From positions 1 through 7,538 of IMG/VR virus record IMGVR_UViG_2529292734_000008: 7,538 nucleotides of DNA; one strand, given 5' to 3'. Positions 1-7,538 of the stretch are shown one piece after another. Below the pieces are notes generated by a model, which searched no databases, was not told the origin of the DNA, and saw only the letters and a program-made list of their open reading frames with translations. Position 1 is the first letter of the stretch. Each line of letters begins with the position of its first letter. Source of the stretch: a virus (taxonomy: Duplodnaviria; Heunggongvirae; Uroviricota; Caudoviricetes). A program made the position numbers and the translations under genes.

Positions 1-523
1 TTACCCGTTCTGTGCGGATCACTTTCAGGGCGCTGCTCACCAGTTCCAGTTGTTCTGCGCTGACTTCCCCCAGATAATCCAGCTCACCGCCACACTCCGG
101 GCAACAGCTTTCTTCAGGCTCCAGGCGGTATATCTCACGGGGGAGATGTGCCGGTAACGGACGACGATGGCGCGACTGTCGCAACTGGCGGGGAACCAGT
201 GGGTCATCCTCACGCCCACTGTAACGATCGCTTTCCTGCTCGCGTTGTTTCAGCAGGGCTTCAGCCTGTTCAACCTCACGACGCAGTTTTTCAGAACGGG
301 TTCCGAACAGCATCCGGCGCAGTTTTCTATCTGAGCCCGCAGATGCTCTATTTCTCGCTCATCTTCTTCGATCTTTTCTTCGGCACGTGCCAGTTGCAGA
401 GCGCAGGAAGGCCTCCGTCTCTTCAACCAGACTCAGTTGCTGGTCTTCCTGACGGAGGGCTTCAGCCTGCTCAGAGAGCAGCCTTTCCAGCTCAGCGATG
501 CGAATGAGGTATTTCTGACTCAT
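1..523 (-). CDS. tnpC: IS66-family transposase TnpC, N-terminal part (3' end outside window); reading frame appears interrupted
   Basis: ATG at 523-521 gives MSQKYLIRIAELERLLSEQAEALRQEDQQLSLVEETEAFLRSA. A coiled-coil segment LARAEEKIEEDEREIEHLRAQIE then lies in the +1 frame, and the long segment KLRRMLFGTRSEKLRREVEQAEALLKQ...CCPECGGELDYLGEVSAEQLELVSSALKVIRTERV returns to the ATG frame. Read straight from the ATG, the frame hits TGA (plus 359-361) after 54 codons. Confidence 0.75.
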
Positions 524-553
524 GGCCGTTTTTATAATCCGGCCCGGCGTTTT

Positions 554-904
554 TTACAACATTGTCAGTGCGTTAAGGCGGGATGTTTTTGGCTGACGCC
601 AGTCCAGCTTATCGAGGAGCATTGCCAGTTGCGAGCGGGTAATGGATATCTTACCGTCACGCACCGCAGGCCAGATAAACTGACCTTCCTCAAGGCGTTT
701 GGTGAACAGGCACAGACCATCAGCATCAGCCCACAGGATTTTAATCGTGTCTCCCCGTCGGCCACGGAAGATAAACAGGTGACCGGAGAAGGGGTTATCA
801 TCCAGCACATGCTGTATCTGCTCCCCCAGACCGTTGAAGGATTTACGCATATCAGTAACGCCGGCAACGAGCCAGATACGGGTACCTGATGGGAGTGAAA
901 TCAT
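554..904 (-). CDS. tnpB: IS66-family accessory protein TnpB (orf2)
   Basis: 116-aa ORF MISLPSGTRIWLVAGVTDMRKSFNGLGEQIQ...GHLFIFRGRRGDTIKILWADADGLCLFTKRLE, which matches the characteristic IS66 Orf2 sequence as I recall it. It sits between tnpA and tnpC. Confidence 0.85.
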   Translation of the reverse strand: MISLPSGTRIWLVAGVTDMRKSFNGLGEQIQHVLDDNPFSGHLFIFRGRRGDTIKILWADADGLCLFTKRLEEGQFIWPAVRDGKISITRSQLAMLLDKLDWRQPKTSRLNALTML

Positions 905-1338
905 CGTCCCTCCCGGTCAGCTCACGGATCAACACCGTGAGCAGCTCTGGTGAAGGATTTTCCAGCATCATTTTACCGTAATGGAATTCCACATGGCAGG
1001 AAGCTGCACAAGCAACTGATAATGCCTCCGGAGCAGGAGCATCTGTAGCACAGCGCGGGGGGTCGATAAGTTCCACTGGAACCAGAGTCGGAGAGGCCGG
1101 AAAAGATTGTGATACTGTAGGGCCTACAATAGTTGGAGGCATTCTACGAGAAAATACGTCCTTCTCTTTGCCAGAGGCGTAGCCATTTAAAAATCAGGTT
1201 GTTATCAACGCCATGTTCCCGGGCCAGTTGTGCAACATTGGCATTTGGTTTCGAAGCCAGTTCAACCATATGAAGTTTAAATTCATTAGAAAATATCCGG
1301 CGGGTTCCGGAGCGCCAGTCTGTAGGTTTATCCATCAA
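852..1338 (-). CDS. tnpA: IS66-family TnpA (orf1), present as two ORFs in different frames (1338-1144 and 1142-852); possibly frameshifted
   Basis: First ORF MMDKPTDWRSGTRRIFSNEFKLHMVELASKPNANVAQLAREHGVDNNLIFKWLRLWQREGRIFS (HTH-like) stops at TAG 1146-1144. Second ORF starts at ATG 1142 in another frame (MPPTIVGPTV...LLTVLIRELTGRDDDF...). The junction lies at the T4 run on the coding (minus) strand (A-run 1151-1154 on plus). Whether the native gene is continuous is from memory and unverified. Confidence 0.55.
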
Positions 1339-1449
1339 TAGAACTCCGTCTAATTTAGAAGGAGCTCTAATTTAGTCTGCAAGGAGCAGGTGTTACAGAC
1401 GGCATTGGCTTTACGCTTACGATTATTCATACTTCGTTTCTCCTCTTGA

Positions 1450-1839
1450 TCAGGCGGCTGCACCCGCCGTTTTCTCGTACTTACTGATAGTGATCTCGAC
1501 CTTCCCTTCCGGGATAACCGGTCCCCACTCCACCAGCATTCTTTTCACCTGACTGTCGTCTTCCCACACCCCCGCGTGGGTCAGGGCGTCAAACAGCGCC
1601 TTGTTATAGTTGTCCAGATCGCGGATCCTGTTATCCGGAGGAAACAACACGATCTCCACTGAAGCAGGTGCCGACGTTGGTTTCGGCAGACGACGTAACT
1701 GCTCAACTATTGCTGCGCACGCCGCGCTCTGGAATTTTCGCCCCGCCGCGCTTATCAGGCTCTTACCAGCAAACGCCCCTTTGTTGGGGTGTCGCCAGTA
1801 CGTGTTCACGCTGGGCGGAAAAGGCAGGATCAGCTTCAT
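1450..1839 (-). CDS. rusA: RusA-family Holliday junction resolvase (crossover junction endodeoxyribonuclease), lambdoid nin-region type
   Basis: 129-aa ORF with PPSVNTYWR...RIRDLDNYNKALFDALTHAGVWEDDSQV, resembling the RusA signature including the acidic RDLDN motif. Its ATG overlaps the stop of the upstream gene (ATGA). Confidence 0.85.
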   Translation of the reverse strand: MKLILPFPPSVNTYWRHPNKGAFAGKSLISAAGRKFQSAACAAIVEQLRRLPKPTSAPASVEIVLFPPDNRIRDLDNYNKALFDALTHAGVWEDDSQVKRMLVEWGPVIPEGKVEITISKYEKTAGAAA

Positions 1840-2162
1840 ACTTTCAGGCCCCTCTCATGTAACCAGTGGGTTGCACGCAGCCTTGCGTTTTCCTCACCGG
1901 CAAGCAGTGAGCGGATAATCCCGACCGCCTCGCTGTCGTCGTCCTTCACCGCGGTATGAAGCGTGATGCCCCGGGCCACGCCACGCTTTATCGTGATGAC
2001 GCCTTTTTTCTCCAGTGCGCGAAGATGCTCCACCGCTGCATTCACTGAACGGTATCCCAGCATGGTTGCCACCTCCTGATTGGTTGGCGGGAAGCCACGT
2101 TCTTTCTGATAAGAAATCAGCATATCCAGCACCTGCTGCTGGCATTGAGTTAACGTCGTCAT
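1836..2162 (-). CDS. LexA-like DNA-binding protein (LexA N-terminal winged-HTH domain only, no S24 peptidase domain)
   Basis: 108-aa ORF MTTLTQCQQQVLDMLISYQKERGFPPTNQEVATMLGYRSVNAAVEHLRALEKKGVITIKRGVARGITL aligns by eye with E. coli LexA residues 1-70 ([69 protein letters not shown]). The protein ends about 35 residues later with no Ser/Lys protease module. ATGA overlaps at both ends. Confidence 0.75.
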   Translation of the reverse strand: MTTLTQCQQQVLDMLISYQKERGFPPTNQEVATMLGYRSVNAAVEHLRALEKKGVITIKRGVARGITLHTAVKDDDSEAVGIIRSLLAGEENARLRATHWLHERGLKV

Positions 2163-2812
2163 GCCGCCATCTCCCTGACCAGTTTTTCTGCCTGCTGGCG
2201 AACCTGCGCCAGAAAGGCCTCACCACATGCCTCAAGTTCATCGCGCCCGATGTAGCTGATTGCCGGTCCCTTCCAGGTCTTGTCGAAAACAGCAATAGCA
2301 CCAGCGAAGAAAGCGCCTGTCGGCACCTGCTTCTCATCCTTCGGGATAAACCAGGCAGGCAGTTCAAAACCAATACGCCCGCGAATAAAAGCAATATGAT
2401 CTGCATCTTCCGGCCACCACACTTCGCTGGTGGCAGCTTTGATCAGGAAAACATAGCGCCCGCCTTTATCACGCATGGCACTGGCATGCTTCATGATGTA
2501 ACGCATGCCGGTGATGTATTGCCCCTCATGCTGGCTGGCGCGGCTGTATGGGGGATTACCAAAGGCAGCACCTTTAAGCTCCGCAAGGCGTTCTGACCAG
2601 TCATGCGCCAACGCGTTGTCTTCCGCCGTGTAATACGCAGCACATTTGGCGTTATCACCGTCAGTAAACAGATCCAGAACAAACGGGCCAAACAGAGTGT
2701 TAATTCCCCAGAAAATGTTGTCCGGCGTGCGCCACTGATCGCCCACTTCCTTCAGTTCATGGGCTGGTTTGTTCCGCAGTTCCGCCAGCGCCTGGCAATA
2801 TTTATTACTCAT
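2159..2812 (-). CDS. Phage N6-adenine DNA methyltransferase (Dam-like orphan MTase)
   Basis: ORF contains the motif-IV sequence FGNPPYS (NPPY) and an overall phage N-6-adenine MTase-like sequence. The likely start is ATG 2812-2810, overlapping the upstream stop as TAATG, with GGGGG just upstream. The ORF track extends to a GTG at 2845. Confidence 0.8.
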   Translation of the reverse strand: MSNKYCQALAELRNKPAHELKEVGDQWRTPDNIFWGINTLFGPFVLDLFTDGDNAKCAAYYTAEDNALAHDWSERLAELKGAAFGNPPYSRASQHEGQYITGMRYIMKHASAMRDKGGRYVFLIKAATSEVWWPEDADHIAFIRGRIGFELPAWFIPKDEKQVPTGAFFAGAIAVFDKTWKGPAISYIGRDELEACGEAFLAQVRQQAEKLVREMAA

Positions 2813-3306
2813 TAAGCCCCCACGTAATTCCCTGAGAGATACCACTCTTCACCTGATGCAGCCCGCTTACTGCTTTTCCGTAAACACAGTTCACGACGTG
2901 CCAGAAAATTGTTTCGTTCTGGCTGGGAGTGGCTTTCACGGAATGCCGCCATCCACACCGTTGCAGCACGACGGTATAAGCCCCTGGACTCCAGTTCTTC
3001 CGCCTGGCGGGTCAGGCACAAAATCACCCGCGGGTCGTTAGTGCCGACATAGAAATTGCGCACAGGTCTGGTTTCACGAACTGGTTGTGGTTCCGGATCC
3101 TGCGCTCTCTCAGTCAGGCGCGGGAAATGTCTGTGTGTATCTCCTTCACAACGGTGAGCCACACGCCCACTCTGACGTAACTTGCTTGCTGACTGCAGAA
3201 CGCGCTGCCGTGAGTAACCTGCAAAAGCATCCGCAATGTCTCCGGAAGTACAGCCCGGATGGGCTTCAATGAATTTCTGAACGTCATTCAAAAGACTCAT
3301 GCTCAC
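2812..3306 (-). CDS. Phage regulatory protein, winged-helix-like N-terminus with PerC-like C-terminal region (putative)
   Basis: 164-aa ORF translationally coupled at both ends (ATGA with the replication gene stop; TAATG with the MTase start). The C-terminal segment LESRGLYRRAATVWMAAF resembles the conserved core I recall for PerC/Pch-family activators; this assignment is from memory and is tentative. Confidence 0.55.
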   Translation of the reverse strand: MSMSLLNDVQKFIEAHPGCTSGDIADAFAGYSRQRVLQSASKLRQSGRVAHRCEGDTHRHFPRLTERAQDPEPQPVRETRPVRNFYVGTNDPRVILCLTRQAEELESRGLYRRAATVWMAAFRESHSQPERNNFLARRELCLRKSSKRAASGEEWYLSGNYVGA

Positions 3307-4244
3307 CCCCTGAATCCTGCCGGGATCTGGCTGTAGTCCACATTGTCGTAACTGGCTTTGAAGTACGGGTCTTCGCGTTTTTCTGTGTACGTGCTGACGG
3401 ACGGCGATAAGCGCAGGGAAAGCTCATCCCATTTTTCCCGCAGCTTCGACGGGCTGAGCACGTTACGGCACCAGAACGGATCGCGGCTGACGCGGCTGTA
3501 CATCTCGCAGATTTGTTTGTGAGTACGACCATCCTGCACACACATCAGGCGAATTTCGTTTGCCCAGGCTGTCCAGTTCGGTTCTTTGGGACGAACCACC
3601 TCGCCGTCACATTCGGCAGCCTGCTCGTACAGGGCGATGATTTTTTTCCAGAGCCACTGTGCGCAGGTCAAATCATCCTGCGTCCCCCACTGGCGCTTTT
3701 TAGGGCTGAATACAACCGCATCAGGATGGCGAGTTAAAAAATCCTGTTCAGCCGTCTGCGTGTCCGGTTGCGAAGCGTCCGGACGAGAAGGTTTTTTATC
3801 TGACGGATCATGTTTTGATTTTACTGACGGATCCCCGCCAGATTCTGACGGGTGAAAACCCGCTTTTTTGCCAGATTTCGACGCATCAAATTTTGACGGG
3901 TCAGATTTTGATGCGTCAGATTTTGACGGGTCAGAATCTGACAGTTGAGAAAATGCCGCTGCCTGAAGCTTCGCAACGTTAAGCTGATAAACATTCGACG
4001 CATTGCGGTTACCCTGGCGACGCGCCTTACGCGTTAACCAGCCTTCTGCTTCCAGCCGTGCGATAGCCGTTCTGACGGTACTCATCCCCGCGCCAATCTG
4101 ACGGGCAATGGTTTCAATTGATGGCCAGCACACACCTTCGTCATTACTGAAATCAGCCAGGCGGGCCATAATTGCCACGCTGGATAACTTCATGCCTGAT
4201 GCAGCGCAACCATCCCATACATAGCCGGTTAATTTAGTGCTCAT
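3303..4244 (-). CDS. Phage replication initiation protein (lambda O-like function): N-terminal HTH DNA-binding domain, low-complexity linker, C-terminal domain
   Basis: 313-aa ORF. The N-terminus ([70 protein letters not shown]) is typical of phage replication-initiator HTH domains. The central linker SDSDPSKSDASKSDPSKFDASKS is encoded by tandem DNA repeats. SD GAGGT lies 5 nt upstream of the ATG. Confidence 0.8.
   Translation of the reverse strand: MSTKLTGYVWDGCAASGMKLSSVAIMARLADFSNDEGVCWPSIETIARQIGAGMSTVRTAIARLEAEGWLTRKARRQGNRNASNVYQLNVAKLQAAAFSQLSDSDPSKSDASKSDPSKFDASKSGKKAGFHPSESGGDPSVKSKHDPSDKKPSRPDASQPDTQTAEQDFLTRHPDAVVFSPKKRQWGTQDDLTCAQWLWKKIIALYEQAAECDGEVVRPKEPNWTAWANEIRLMCVQDGRTHKQICEMYSRVSRDPFWCRNVLSPSKLREKWDELSLRLSPSVSTYTEKREDPYFKASYDNVDYSQIPAGFRG
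3798..3950. repeat. Putative replication origin: about 8 iterons with 10-bp core TGAYGSRTCA inside the replication-initiator gene
   Basis: Core copies at about 3801, 3825, 3846, 3880, 3895, 3910, 3925 and 3940, the last four at exact 15-bp spacing (GATTT-TGACGGGTCA). Flanking T-rich tracts at 3791-3797 and 3864-3869. The position matches the lambda arrangement where ori lies within the O gene linker. Confidence 0.6.
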
Positions 4245-4592
4245 GACCGACCTCTATTTCCCTGAATTTACGACGAAACTGTTCGAGCGGACTGAAGCAT
4301 TCATGCTCATAACCTTCGCGGAGGTAGATAACCCGTTGTGTTTCCGGCTCCCAACGAATGACTCTGACGGGCACTCCGTAGTGATCTTTGAACCAGCGGT
4401 TAACTTGTCGCAAAGGACTGTCTCCTTCTGCCGGTTGAAATCACCCACAGCCCACTCTGCAAAGCTGTGGGTTACAATTTCCCTGTCACCTGGTACATTC
4501 ACTGCATAGCAATATTCCACCTTCGCTTTTCCACCCGGAACAGGAAGCGCAATCAGTTGCGAGCGACGGTAGTGTGTTGTTAAACTGTTCAT
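4234..4592 (-). CDS. Hypothetical phage protein, apparently frameshifted (N-terminal part in one frame, protein-like C-terminal part in another)
   Basis: The track ORF 4592-4254 starts [51 protein letters not shown] and then degenerates into a Ser/Thr-rich tail. From 4440 down to TAA 4236-4234 a second frame encodes [68 protein letters not shown]. The start overlaps the upstream gene stop as ATGA. Confidence 0.5.
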
Positions 4593-4957
4593 GCGTTAGT
4601 TTCTCCACAGTCACGACACGCCACGGCGCCCGGAGCTGCACACTCGCGGGCGTCATTACTTTCTGAAATGCAAAAAATTTTGTAGACCAGTGCTGCATGC
4701 TCCTGCAGCTTCGAAATTGAGAGGTAGAGCTCGTCATTAATTGCTGTCTTCTCATGCGGTTCCACTACACCGTCTTCGATTGCTGAACGAATCTGTTTTG
4801 AATAACTGCCGATCTGTTCAATGACTTCCAGCAGACGCTGGTTAATATCGGCGTTGTCCACATCCTCGACGTCAGGAAGAGACACAAAGACGCCATTTGC
4901 AGACTGCGCCACAGCATCAGCAATGAAGTGAGTTCCACCAGCACGTTGCAAAATCAT
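4589..4957 (-). CDS. Hypothetical phage early protein (122 aa, predicted helical)
   Basis: ORF with ATG at 4957. Its stop overlaps the downstream gene start (ATGA at 4592-4589). It lies between the cII-like and replication genes in the same operon. No family recognised. Confidence 0.55.
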
Positions 4958-4978
4958 TGCCCATCCCAGCGGGAAAAT

Positions 4979-5185
4979 CTAATCGCCATCGGCACGAAGG
5001 CGGTTAAATAATGCGTTCTCTGTTACATCCAGCCAGTCAGCAGCTTCAGCGTAACCCCCCGGCAACGCTGCGATAGTTTTTCTGACAGCTTTCACGTACC
5101 ACTCAGGCTGTTTGTCTACTTTCCAGTGATGCTTACCCACGGTTAGCCTCATCGTTCTGTGGTTTCTGTTAATCGATTTATCCAT
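4979..5185 (-). CDS. CII-like / YdaT-like HTH regulatory protein (putative), ending at an amber codon
   Basis: HTH-like segment GYAEAADWLDVTENALFNRLR at the C-terminus, in the position of lambda cII (immediately downstream of cro). The start is uncertain: ATG 5185 overlaps the cro stop, with alternatives at 5197 and 5152; none has a strong SD. The ORF ends at TAG 4981-4979. Confidence 0.45.
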   Translation of the reverse strand: MDKSINRNHRTMRLTVGKHHWKVDKQPEWYVKAVRKTIAALPGGYAEAADWLDVTENALFNRLRADGD

Positions 5186-5378
5186 TAGATTTTTCATAAA
5201 GCTCAGGTTTAAATGGCAACCGTCCGCAAGTTCTATATGCAGCTTCTGCTGCACGTCCTTTTGGAATTAACTGGCCCGGACGGTTTCGCCACTGATAAAC
5301 GGCTTCAGTTGTTATGCCGAAAAAAGCAGCAACTTTCTCAATACTGCCGAAGTAGCTTTCGATATCGTCAGTTGTCAT
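5178..5378 (-). CDS. Cro-like transcriptional regulator (small HTH protein)
   Basis: 66-aa ORF MTTDDIESYFGSIEKVAAFFGITTEAVYQWRNRPGQLIPKGRAAEAAYRTCGRLPF with an HTH motif (VAAFFGITTEAVYQWR). SD GGAGGG lies just upstream of ATG 5378. It is transcribed divergently from the repressor gene. Confidence 0.7.
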   Translation of the reverse strand: MTTDDIESYFGSIEKVAAFFGITTEAVYQWRNRPGQLIPKGRAAEAAYRTCGRLPFKPELYEKSNG

Positions 5379-5388
5379 ACGCCCTCCA

Positions 5389-5455
5389 AACTAAGTTTTA
5401 TTAGATGCTAATTACAAATCTATCTTTGGTCAATAAAAACTAAGATTACTTAGTA
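5389..5455. promoter_or_regulatory. Divergent immunity control region (OR-like): two 14-bp inverted-repeat operator candidates and a PR-like promoter for cro
   Basis: CTAAGTTTTATTAG (5391-5404) and CTAAGATTACTTAG (5440-5453; perfect 5-bp arms CTAAG/CTTAG). On the minus strand, -35 TTGACC (5433-5428), a 17-bp spacer and -10 TAGCAT (5410-5405) precede the cro ATG. The first operator overlaps the -10/+1 region. Confidence 0.55.
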
Positions 5456-5475
5456 ATTAAAGAAATGGTGCTCCT

Positions 5476-5985
5476 ATGGAAACGGTTGGTCAGCGTATAA
5501 AAGCTCTGAGAAGAGTTACCAGAACGTCCCAGAAAGAATTGGGTAAATTTTGTGGAGTAAGCGACGTTGCTGTGGGGTACTGGGAGAAAGACATCAATAC
5601 CCCTGGTGGGGAGGCACTTTCGAAATTAGCGAAGTTCTTCAATACGTCAATAGATTACATTCTTTATGGTGCTGAGTTTGAAGGCAAACTCGTCACAAAC
5701 ATGCGCAGAGTTCCTGTAATATCGTGGGTTCAGGCTGGGCAGTTTACTGAGTGCAGGGCAGCAGAAGTGTTTAGTGAAGTGGACAAGTGGGTAGATACAT
5801 CATTAAAGATTGGTGATAACTCATTTGCATTAGAGGTTAAAGGTGACTCCATGACTAACCCTAATGGCCTCCCAACAATACCAGAAGGCGCAACAGTGAT
5901 TGTAGATCCAGATGCAGAACCTCGTCATGGAAAAATAGTCATCGCTCGACTTGATGGAACAAACGAAGCTACAGTAAAAAATTAG
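5476..5985 (+). CDS. CI-type prophage repressor (XRE HTH + LexA-like S24 peptidase domain), truncated by a frameshift; remaining C-terminal codons continue in another frame to 6101
   Basis: N-terminal HTH (QKELGKFCGVSDVAVGYWEKD) and S24 catalytic Ser motif GDSM. The ORF ends ...ARLDGTNEATVKN*. The adjacent frame encodes KKLVIDGPQKFLVPLNPRYPNIPINGNCLIIGVVKGVQYEL* (to TAA 6099-6101), which matches the lambda CI C-terminus pattern [35 protein letters not shown]. The break is in the A6 run 5976-5981. Confidence 0.85.
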   Translation: METVGQRIKALRRVTRTSQKELGKFCGVSDVAVGYWEKDINTPGGEALSKLAKFFNTSIDYILYGAEFEGKLVTNMRRVPVISWVQAGQFTECRAAEVFSEVDKWVDTSLKIGDNSFALEVKGDSMTNPNGLPTIPEGATVIVDPDAEPRHGKIVIARLDGTNEATVKN

Positions 5986-6115
5986 TCATCGATGGCCCTC
6001 AAAAGTTTTTAGTGCCATTAAATCCTCGGTATCCCAACATCCCTATCAATGGTAATTGCCTTATCATTGGTGTAGTCAAAGGAGTTCAATACGAACTCTA
6101 AGACCTCTCTTCTCT

Positions 6116-6183
6116 AACTAAGGCACCGAACTAAGAAAAGTTTGGTGTTTTCTCTTGCCATAATAACTAAGTTAAGTTAGATT
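6116..6183 (+). promoter_or_regulatory. OL/PL-like element: repeated AACTAAG half-sites, a 14-bp operator-like site and a sigma70-like promoter pointing rightward
   Basis: AACTAAG at 6116-6122, 6129-6135 and 6165-6171. CTAAGTTAAGTTAG at 6167-6180 matches the OR motif. -35 TTGCCA (6155-6160), 17-bp spacer, -10 TAGATT (6178-6183). Confidence 0.45.
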
Positions 6184-6261
6184 TTATGTCAAAGATAACG
6201 AACAGGCAGGACGCCCACGAAGTAGCCGCCTGGGGCATATGAAGTCCAGGATGATTCGTTA

Positions 6262-6290
6262 GCAACAAAAAAGCGCCCTACAGGACGCTT
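6262..6290 (-). terminator. Intrinsic terminator-like hairpin with U-tract, minus-strand sense
   Basis: Minus-strand RNA would read AAGCGUCC-UGUA-GGGCGCUU followed by UUUUUUGUUG (stem 6271-6290, A-run 6267-6272 on plus). On the plus strand the same hairpin has a C-A mismatch and no downstream U-tract. Confidence 0.5.
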
Positions 6291-6291
6291 A

Positions 6292-6303
6292 GCTCTTTAA
6301 CAA
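6292..6303 (+). promoter_or_regulatory. boxA-like antitermination element (12/12 match to the rrn-type boxA core GCTCTTTAACAA)
   Basis: GCTCTTTAACAA at 6292-6303, immediately after a hairpin and about 45 nt upstream of the ATG of the first plus-strand gene downstream of the PL-like promoter. A weak AU-rich hairpin CAAGTAACTGATAACTTG follows at 6319-6336. Confidence 0.45.
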
Positions 6304-6348
6304 TCTGGTCCCCATCAACAAGTAACTGATAACTTGAGGAGATGTGAA

Positions 6349-6555
6349 ATGCACAAAACAGAACCCAAAATCGTCGCGCCTGGCTACACAGATGAGGAAA
6401 TTTATGAGTGGATGACAAAGAAGCTGGCAGCTATAAACCAGCTTCGTGAAGTGCTGTCTTATCGACAGGAAACAATAGACTCCTTAAAAAAACTGGATCA
6501 GGAAATCACGGTTTTATCACAGGATGTTACTTTAGATATTGTGCAGACAAATTAG
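6349..6555 (+). CDS. Hypothetical small protein (68 aa), first gene of the rightward PL-like transcript; AT-rich accessory gene
   Basis: ATG at 6349 preceded by a strong SD GAGGAG (6336-6341). The track ORF begins at an earlier in-frame ATG at 6334. The translation MHKTEPKIVAPGYTDEEIYEWMTKKLAAINQLREVLSYRQETIDSLKKLDQEITVLSQDVTLDIVQTN is predicted helical and acidic. No family recognised. Confidence 0.6.
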   Translation: MHKTEPKIVAPGYTDEEIYEWMTKKLAAINQLREVLSYRQETIDSLKKLDQEITVLSQDVTLDIVQTN

Positions 6556-6961
6556 GATCCCATTCATTTTCGTCAAAATCATCAAAGTGATGAATTTGTG
6601 ATCTCCAGTCTCGATAATCTAAAAATTTCTGGGCGGTTACGCTTATTTTATCAAGTGTGAGTTCATCCTGAATTGAAAGAAGAAGTTCATCAAATTTCAT
6701 CTCATTAATCTGTTTTGGCATCCAGTGATGCTTCATCAGAATAAGGTGAACCAGAGCCTTTTTCCCATTCAACTGATTATAGGGAGTGCCGAATTTCTTC
6801 CGGTGCTCATGTAAGACAAGGTCCAAAAGAGTAAGTAATGTTGCCCTTGATTCAACTTTGCTTATTTCGACTGATGACACTACCCCACTGATTTCAATGC
6901 CCCGATACTTTCCAACATTTTCACAGTGGGATTTGTACAGCGTATAGATATTACCGGACAT
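6527..6961 (-). CDS. Hypothetical protein (144 aa), moron-like accessory gene transcribed convergently to the PL-like operon
   Basis: ORF with SD AAGGA (revcomp of plus 6962-6975) upstream of ATG 6961. The region looks AT-rich compared with the flanking phage backbone. Its 3' end overlaps the 68-aa gene by 29 bp. No family recognised. Confidence 0.7.
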   Translation of the reverse strand: MSGNIYTLYKSHCENVGKYRGIEISGVVSSVEISKVESRATLLTLLDLVLHEHRKKFGTPYNQLNGKKALVHLILMKHHWMPKQINEMKFDELLLSIQDELTLDKISVTAQKFLDYRDWRSQIHHFDDFDENEWDPNLSAQYLK

Positions 6962-6976
6962 TTCTTTTCCTTTTGC

Positions 6977-7028
6977 GTTGTTGGGGATAACCAGATTAAC
7001 CGAATCCTTGTTGTTGGGGAATAACCAG
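6977..7028. repeat. Two 18-19 bp direct repeats GTTGTTGGGGA(A)TAACCAG separated by about 15 bp, in the upstream region of the 144-aa gene
   Basis: Copy 1 at 6977-6994 and copy 2 at 7010-7028, nearly identical, located 16-67 bp upstream of the minus-strand ATG at 6961. Confidence 0.5.
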
Positions 7029-7245
7029 GTCCACCTCGCCTGATGTGGCTAAAAGCAGGCACATAACAGCTAAGTATTTTCAACCAGAGAGAATCCTTAG
7101 CGTTGTGGTGAATGCGGCTCAGCGCACGCGGGTTAAGGTTGAGGCTGACAGTCGACCTTCTGTGGATACCCACCCGCCTGGTGTGCAACCTTCGCCAGGC
7201 ACCGGGAGGCACCCGGCACCACAACTTTATGCTGTGTGTAGTCTT

Positions 7246-7292
7246 GGCGGTACCAGCTTGTACCCTTGCTTCCGGCTGGTACCGTCCTTTTT
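7246..7292 (+). terminator. Rho-independent terminator-like hairpin (10-bp perfect stem CGGTACCAGC/GCTGGTACCG, 17-nt loop, T5 tract)
   Basis: Stem 7248-7257 pairs with 7275-7284, followed by TTTTT at 7288-7292 on the plus strand. Confidence 0.6.
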
Positions 7293-7297
7293 ACAAA

Positions 7298-7379
7298 ACA
7301 GAGAAGAGCATCACCGGACGACGGGCTCATAACCCAATCCATCCGGGCGGCAGTCACCGCAGGTGTTCTTCTCTGTTTT
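7298..7379 (+). other. Long-range helix (about 15 bp including G-U pairs) enclosing about 49 nt, followed by a UUU run; structured leader element
   Basis: 7298-7312 pairs with 7362-7376 (ACAGAGAAGAGCATC / GGTGTTCTTCTCTGT). It lies about 50 nt upstream of the next gene's ATG. Confidence 0.35.
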
Positions 7380-7429
7380 GTGGAGAAACTAACCGACCTT
7401 GCAGGGTCGATATGATGAGGAGCAGCAAA

Positions 7430-7538
7430 ATGGCTAGCGAACGCAGTACTGATGTGCAGGCATTTATCGGGGAGCTGGACGGCGGCGTATTTGAAACCAA
7501 AATCGGCGCAGTTCTCAGTGAAGTCGCTTCCGGTGTGA
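7430..7538 (+). CDS. Hypothetical protein, 5' partial view (continues beyond window end)
   Basis: ATG 7430 with SD GAGGAG (7417-7422) 8 nt upstream. Translation MASERSTDVQAFIGELDGGVFETKIGAVLSEVASGV... is open to the window end. No family recognised. Confidence 0.55.
   Translation, partial: MASERSTDVQAFIGELDGGVFETKIGAVLSEVASGV

Follow-up and report, generated by a model that had tools for sequence, protein, structure and literature searches.

IS629 has been shown to be the main source of variation among otherwise identical Stx2a prophages of Escherichia coli O157:H7, in which the roi gene is also hit (PMC4587872). The prophages Sp1-Sp18 of O157 Sakai carry IS insertions and frameshifts, although many of them are still inducible and transferable (PMC2669165), and therefore an insertion is not to be equated with a dead prophage. 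The prophage of E. coli DEC14B described here is lambda-like with IS insertions and, as assembled, frameshifts, as in the case of the Sakai prophages (PMC2669165). It also resembles the Stx2a prophages with IS629 in roi, in that an IS has entered a small early-right gene for a DNA-binding protein upstream of Q (PMC4587872). The roi case involves an IS3-family element, roi and an Stx prophage, whereas an IS66-family element, kilA-N and a non-Stx prophage are involved in the present case, which is known from sequence. As for the element, the order tnpA-tnpB-tnpC, termini beginning with GTAAGCGT and an 8-bp target-site duplication are common to the present IS and to ISEc47, whose close relatives are ISEc43 and IS679/ISEc8. 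Unlike ISEc47, the present copy as assembled has four 1-bp homopolymer indels, which break tnpA and tnpC.

The stretch analysed (the window) makes up the whole 7,538-bp contig AIHL01000003.1 of the draft DEC14B assembly GCA_000250435.2. Leftward extension is impossible, the assembly having broken off in a multi-copy repeat, with the contig ending within the IS; ISEc47-type sequence occurs at a median of 2 and at up to 46 places per genome. All genes from 5378 down to 1, the repressor gene excepted, lie on the minus strand and form the early-right operon of a lambda-like prophage (Table 1). Since rusA is on this strand, lower coordinates are downstream of it. The predicted RusA gives a full-length match to the family profile PF05866, over residues 6-118 of 129 (E 6e-15), matches PHROG 34 (E 3e-58), and is 100% the same protein as in E. 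coli strain D6. The prophage part of the window differs from D6 at four sites only. Two are substitutions at 2534 and 2888, one is a G-to-A change by which ymfL acquires an amber codon (4979-4981), an allele that is very common, and one is a 1-bp deletion in an A7 run of the repressor gene cI (at about 5976), which as assembled truncates the product to 169 aa. In exact-protein look-ups, this truncated cI was matched in IS-free assemblies only, and the 122-aa YmfL fragment was too common to discriminate. A scan of the window with the Rfam gathering thresholds gave no match.

Table 1. Coordinates of features in the 7,538-bp window of E. coli DEC14B
Feature	Position	Strand	Basis or remark
ISEc47-like IS, first 1,420 bp (IRL, tnpA, tnpB, 5' third of tnpC)	1..1420	-	ISEc47 identity and Pfam
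tnpC, 5' part of DDE transposase (leucine-zipper and zinc-finger regions)	1..523	-	frameshifted as assembled
tnpB, IS66 Orf2-like, intact, 116 aa	554..904	-	PF05717, E 3e-36
tnpA, 144 aa in intact ISEc47	901..1335	-	broken as assembled
Chimeric 26-codon ORF MNNRKRKANAVCNTCSLQTKLELLLN with stop, from kilA-N start into IS end	1350..1430	-	
Terminal inverted repeat IRL, GTAAGCGTAAAGCCAATGCCGTCTGTAA on minus strand	1393..1420	-	inverted-repeat comparison
8-bp target-site duplication, one copy (GATTATTC on plus, GAATAATC on minus strand)	1421..1428		single copy in uninterrupted D6
First 10 nt, ATGAATAATC, of interrupted KilA-N gene (265 aa in IS-free relatives)	1421..1430	-	D6 alignment
Shine-Dalgarno region AAGAGGAGAA of kilA-N, stranded upstream of IS	1438..1447	-	sequence reading
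rusA, predicted Holliday-junction resolvase, intact, 129 aa	1450-1839	-	PF05866, PHROG 34
LexA-DNA-binding-domain protein	1836-2162	-	early-right operon
Phage Dam methylase	2159-2812	-	early-right operon
PerC/yfdN		-	early-right operon, between replication initiator and Dam methylase
HTH_36 replication initiator, 313 aa	3303-4244	-	early-right operon
ymfL		-	early-right operon, after cro-like gene
cro-like gene	5178-5378	-	early-right operon

In a megablast search with the whole window as query, 74 of 5,426 complete E. coli genomes reached the threshold of at least 80% coverage, and all of the 25 matches listed align with 1421-7538 only, at 98.9-99.9% identity. No genome covers more than 81% of the window, and therefore the insertion is absent from these 5,426 complete genomes. 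The 74 IS-free genomes and Escherichia phage Kati have the order rusA, kilA-N, DUF968/HNH, Q. In D6 this is followed by an oppositely oriented porin gene, holin, lysozyme and Rz; the order rusA, kilA-N, DUF968, Q and lysis genes is found in D6, phage Kati, Shigella phage SfII and Stx2a phages. The rusA-kilA-N-DUF968-Q module has no IS in Kati (PP925833.1; 100% identity) or SfII (97% identity), and PhiR phages as well as several Stx2a phages carry it too. A preliminary description of the window stated that the region after rusA normally leads into Q and the late genes in lambdoid phages. Q does lie downstream, but kilA-N and a DUF968/HNH gene intervene in D6 and Kati. The D6 module belongs to a complete-looking 45-kb prophage at a tRNA-Arg gene, with full lambda-type head and tail genes, which adjoins intD and carries genes with the DLP12 names quuD, essD and rrrD. 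Its site is presumably argU/intD, as for DLP12 of K-12. DLP12 is a lambda-like defective prophage, while D6, DEC10E (see below) and phage Kati retain full head, tail and packaging genes.

Positions 1-1420 of the window are the tnpA-tnpB-5'tnpC portion of an ISEc47-like element of the IS66 family, with 99.6% nucleotide identity to annotated ISEc47 copies. The three-gene set of the family is represented by PF01527, PF05717, PF13007 and PF13005 in the window and by PF03050 and PF13817 on a second contig of the same assembly (AIHL01000044.1, the partner contig). The LZ_Tnp_IS66 and zf-IS66 domains of TnpC lie at 1-358(-) of the window (Pfam), and the C-terminus of DDE_Tnp_IS66 lies at 112-471 of the partner contig. 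The coordinates of tnpB correspond to WP_000624688.1 in an annotated, intact ISEc47 copy (L002). This copy is 2,541 bp long, begins with GTAAGCGT at both ends and is flanked by the 8-bp duplication GAAGTTTT. The imperfect terminal inverted repeats of IS66-family elements reportedly begin with GTAAGCG, and such a start was verified directly on the intact ISEc47. The first 8 bases of the IRL match the opposite end of the IS, both termini beginning with GTAAGCGT.

Window base 1420 is the last base of the complete 2,541-bp ISEc47. In a pairwise alignment with D6, the best match, the sequences agree perfectly to the right of the junction between 1420 and 1421 and are unrelated to the left of it. 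The IS terminus and the rusA stop codon were thus rightly placed in the preliminary description, at about 1420 and at 1450-1452. The IS66-family assignment made there holds as well, in view of the identity to ISEc47 and the Pfam IS66 domains, and the distance from rusA, given as about 30 bp, is 29 bp (1421-1449). Chance resemblance can be dismissed for the IS, its terminus and rusA alike. On the minus strand, these 29 bp follow the rusA TGA with TCAAGAGGAGAAACGAAGT and ATG AAT AAT C before GTAAGCG of the IS, that is, a ribosome-binding site, a start codon and ten coding bases. Comparison with IS-free relatives, which had been proposed as a way of finding the interrupted gene, identifies it in D6 and others as a 265-aa KilA-N gene. 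The assignment of the insertion to the nin/late-control junction therefore needs amendment: the site does lie between rusA and Q of a lambdoid prophage, but it falls inside kilA-N, at nt 10, and is not intergenic.

The intact gene occupies 5213-6010(-) of the D6 locus (L001), and its 265-aa product has PF04383 at residues 7-105 (E 2e-26) and belongs to PHROG 129, 'transcriptional regulator'. The insertion point is codon 4. From the severed kilA-N start codon, the chimeric ORF runs into the IS and stops just upstream of the tnpA ATG. On the other side, the residual ORF (residues 5-265) could start only at a TTG in the IS end or at Met5, neither of which has a recognisable Shine-Dalgarno sequence. 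Because the ribosome-binding site and start codon are severed and the remainder has no good translation start, KilA-N has most likely been knocked out by the IS.

The preliminary description had pointed to the other IS end and an 8-bp target-site duplication as a check, and the far end with the second copy of the duplication was found outside the window. The far junction was predicted from D6 and the intact ISEc47, and the products that a gene caller would report there were searched for in a protein collection. Both predicted products, one of 261 aa from Met5 and one of 268 aa from the TTG in the IS end (MTLTNNLMVIDG...), were present. The 268-aa chimera, whose first codons derive from the IS end and the duplicated target, was matched exactly once, by EHX83901.1 of DEC14B, which is encoded on the 7,047-bp partner contig AIHL01000044.1. 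This contig starts with the last 501 bp of the IS (one mismatch to ISEc47), which end in the matching GTAAGCGT terminus, followed by GAATAATC and by kilA-N from nucleotide 11. Then come DUF968, Q, porin, holin, lysozyme, Rz and bor, and the contig ends within the first part of an IS2. The genes for Q (PF06530), holin, lysozyme and Rz are all intact, and the Q antiterminator gene is placed as in the relatives, after the nin-like region and before the lysis cassette.

The junctions read ...ATGAATAATC directly followed by GTAAGCG... on the minus strand of the window, and ...GACGCTTAC directly followed by GAATAATCTGATGGTC... on the partner contig. They overlap the uninterrupted sequence by exactly 8 bases (GATTATTC on the plus strand), a perfect target-site duplication of the same size as that flanking the intact ISEc47 elsewhere. 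Identity to ISEc47 is 99.6% over 1,420 bp on one side and 99.8% over 501 bp on the other, and the middle ~620 bp is in neither contig. We infer from the duplication that both ends belong to one element. The locus is thus very probably the product of a single transposition of an ISEc47-like element (~2.54 kb) into nt 10 of kilA-N with duplication of 8 bp, by which KilA-N was likely lost and Q might be subject to polarity.

The same insertion exists in a second strain. The 261-aa product led to contig AIGT01000007.1 of E. coli DEC10E (O26:H11, stx1, eae), an independent assembly in which the IS ends at the identical base with the identical 8-bp duplication. This contig aligns with the DEC14B partner contig at full identity and without a gap over 6,549 bp, including the IS2 junction after bor. 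Beyond bor, the DEC10E contig has a complete IS2, DUF3950, nu1, terminase A, gpW and portal genes. Accordingly, the prophage retains late genes and is marked by two insertions, the ISEc47-like element and the IS2 between bor and nu1. The exact junction had no match in GTDB representative genomes or in JGI metagenome contigs. When the 83-aa PerC and 137-aa cI products called in the source annotation were used as exact probes for the contig bearing the early region of DEC10E, only the window was recovered. DEC14B is, we assume, a different DEC clone from DEC10E. The shared, doubly IS-marked prophage could reflect spread after the IS insertions, or equally shared descent or a laboratory mix-up. 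Horizontal movement of the prophage after it acquired the IS, with an IS between PR and Q that did not abolish transmission, is on balance unlikely.

Whether the IS copy itself has decayed bears on its possible effects. Its part in the window differs from ISEc47 by two substitutions and four 1-bp indels (T3 to T4, G4 to G3, A to AA and A5 to A4). In tnpA, one base is gained in a T run (IS position 267; the plus-strand A run at window position 1151) and one is lost at 908; the product called there has 63 aa (1144-1335), and an HTH_Tnp_1 fragment of TnpA is matched at 1144-1338(-). In tnpC, one base is gained at 394 and one lost at 323, with a stop codon between them. The two DEC14B contigs have six indels, five of which sit in IS sequence near contig ends. 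An A7-versus-A6 indel in the IS2 of the partner contig is absent from the otherwise identical DEC10E contig, while the ~3.5 kb of unique partner-contig sequence adjoining the junction has zero indels against D6. This pattern is at least as compatible with errors in homopolymers or in the repeat consensus as with real decay. An IS66 relative of 93% identity on a metagenome contig also has the T4 run in tnpA, and therefore the T4 run may be a genuine slippage site. The 96-aa ORF specific to the frameshifted reading had no exact match in the protein collection.

IS insertions in operons are classically polar. Here, the IS genes are co-oriented with the early-right operon (cro ... rusA, kilA-N, DUF968/HNH, Q), and PR transcripts would reach DUF968 and Q only after 2.5 kb of IS. 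With this length to cross, the supply of Q and activation of the late genes after induction would probably be lowered by polarity, and the chance that Q and late expression would be strongly blocked is roughly even. Rho-dependent polarity on Q is plausible, especially if the frameshifts are real. Antitermination of the kind known from lambdoid early operons could let RNA polymerase pass the IS, and read-through from the induced early operon would then transcribe the transposase genes. A consensus scan found no convincing intrinsic terminator on the operon strand of ISEc47. Two terminator-like sites were present against 2.8 expected from shuffled sequences, and the one on the operon strand has a weak 5-bp stem. 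No outward promoter was found at the IS end by consensus scan. A hybrid outward promoter using TTGACG at the IS terminus was considered and rejected, because the flank has no acceptable -10 element at 16-18 nt.

It is quite conceivable, if somewhat short of probable, that the insertion is nearly neutral: only an accessory KilA-N would be lost, and antiterminated early transcription would cross the co-oriented IS and express DUF968 and Q. The shared orientation, the lack of a strong terminator, the intactness of the downstream genes and the occurrence of the insertion in two strains are consistent with this, as is the finding that IS629 in nin-region genes such as roi is common among otherwise active Stx2a phages (PMC4587872). 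On the other hand, the Rfam scan of the window revealed no N-like or put-like antitermination function, and the polarity expected of operon insertions in general argues for an effect on Q. Furthermore, many functional phages conserve kilA-N at this position, and the gene therefore may not be dispensable.

The opposite outcome, raised in the preliminary description, is that early transcription no longer gets past the IS to Q and the late genes, leaving a prophage that is defective owing to the IS. We hold this as a tentative possibility. The position between PR and Q, with 2.5 kb of foreign DNA to cross, points in this direction, and the tnpA and tnpC frameshifts, if real, would mean long untranslated stretches favouring Rho-dependent polarity. 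Further lesions are seen as assembled, namely the cI frameshift and the IS2 between bor and nu1. However, the IS is co-oriented and has no convincing terminator, and Q, lysis, terminase and portal genes are intact. Two strains share the doubly IS-marked prophage without a single difference over 6.5 kb, and 0 of the 5,426 complete genomes contain it, which is more easily explained if it was still transmissible after the insertion. In addition, O157 prophages that look defective are often active (PMC2669165).

Readings in which kilA-N was not simply interrupted fare much worse. The IS end near rusA might be the border of an IS-mediated deletion or inversion, so that the late region is no longer adjacent; the window sequence alone is compatible with this, and a related IS on a metagenome contig (L013) stands between unrelated genes and has no duplication. 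Such a rearrangement is very improbable here and was rejected on the exact 8-bp duplication, since the partner contig resumes kilA-N at exactly the expected base and has DUF968, Q and the lysis genes in native order. A repeat mis-assembly that joined an IS to the rusA flank where there is none would suit a short draft contig that ends in a multi-copy repeat and bears four homopolymer indels, but it can practically be discounted and was rejected on the same duplication, because the two contigs, though separate, each carry a junction that matches the uninterrupted sequence, their overlap being exactly 8 bp as is typical of real transposition, and the far junction recurs in another genome that was assembled independently.

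The transposition of an ISEc47-like element into kilA-N is ordinary biology of a kind already known, a catalogued IS in a lambdoid prophage. It adds one more case of the IS traffic into lambdoid prophages that is a documented driver of variation and decay in pathogenic E. coli. Its importance beyond the strain is small; it is a clean case in which the two junctions, the duplication and the interrupted gene are known and IS-free references exist. The insertion could be used to mark the strains DEC14B and DEC10E or their prophage, and on induction it would provide a natural experiment on the polarity of a co-oriented IS66 element on Q. If the two hosts are truly unrelated, the prophage would have moved after acquiring the IS, which would then have left it transmissible, perhaps because antiterminated transcription reads through the element; in that event, induction of the prophage would also turn on the transposase genes.

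The ISEc47-like copy in the window differs from ISEc47, an IS66-family element, by four 1-bp homopolymer indels (at 323, 394, 908 and 1151), so that both tnpA and tnpC are broken as assembled. Since these indels are grouped in repeat sequence close to the contig end, they may have arisen from assembly or pyrosequencing errors and not from decay. An IS66-family relative with 93% identity is found at 5101-7643 of an ENA metagenome contig (L013), where the T-run of tnpA carries an extra T as in the window copy, giving a 63-aa TnpA. This relative lies between a P22-type portal gene and a TonB-dependent receptor gene, and a target duplication is absent at its two flanks; either a rearrangement mediated by the IS or chimerism of the contig could account for this arrangement. 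The second IS of the prophage, IS2, is located between bor and DUF3950/nu1 (around 6240-7047 of the partner contig L015 and 6231-7560 of L021). It is common to the E. coli assemblies DEC14B, the source of the window, and DEC10E, its orfA/orfB region having an A7 run in the DEC14B copy versus A6 in the DEC10E copy. In an unrelated run, the 1,142-bp Logan contig SRR11859172_107003 has its first base 2 nt ahead of kilA-N codon 5, directly following the position of the target duplication in this gene.

Point differences from the IS-free relative prophage of E. coli D6 affect two further genes. In the cI-type repressor, 1 bp is deleted from an A7 run (window around 5970-5976), which results in a truncated 169-aa product. 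Because the identical truncated product is also present in several other assemblies, all of them IS-free, the deletion recurs, either through slippage or through miscalling of the homopolymer. Relative to D6, a G to A change creates an amber codon in ymfL and divides the gene into products of 53 aa and 122 aa. The allele is natural and common rather than specific to this strain, as 1,327 blocks of the protein collection contain a record of the 122-aa product.

Features of the prophage in the window
Feature	Position	Strand	Description
Iteron-like array	3872-3935		15-bp unit CAGATTTTGACGGGT, 4.3 copies, 81% matches
Overlapping ORF pair	4234-4413; 4254-4592	-	different frames
ymfL amber codon	4979-4981	-	
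cI-type repressor	5476-6102	+	HTH_3 plus Peptidase_S24
ECs1072-family gene to yfdP	6962-7429		about 470 nt

The overlapping ORFs are alternative calls by annotation, a 59-aa DUF4222 protein in D6 versus a 112-aa hypothetical protein in the IS-free phage Kati and in DEC-type and Logan sequences. The region between the ECs1072-family gene and yfdP contains no convincing ORF, its counterpart in D6 being annotated as a frameshifted hypothetical protein, and no Rfam match is found there at the gathering threshold.

The iteron-like array lies within the gene for the 313-aa HTH_36 replication initiator and is probably the phage origin, in the same arrangement as in lambda O.
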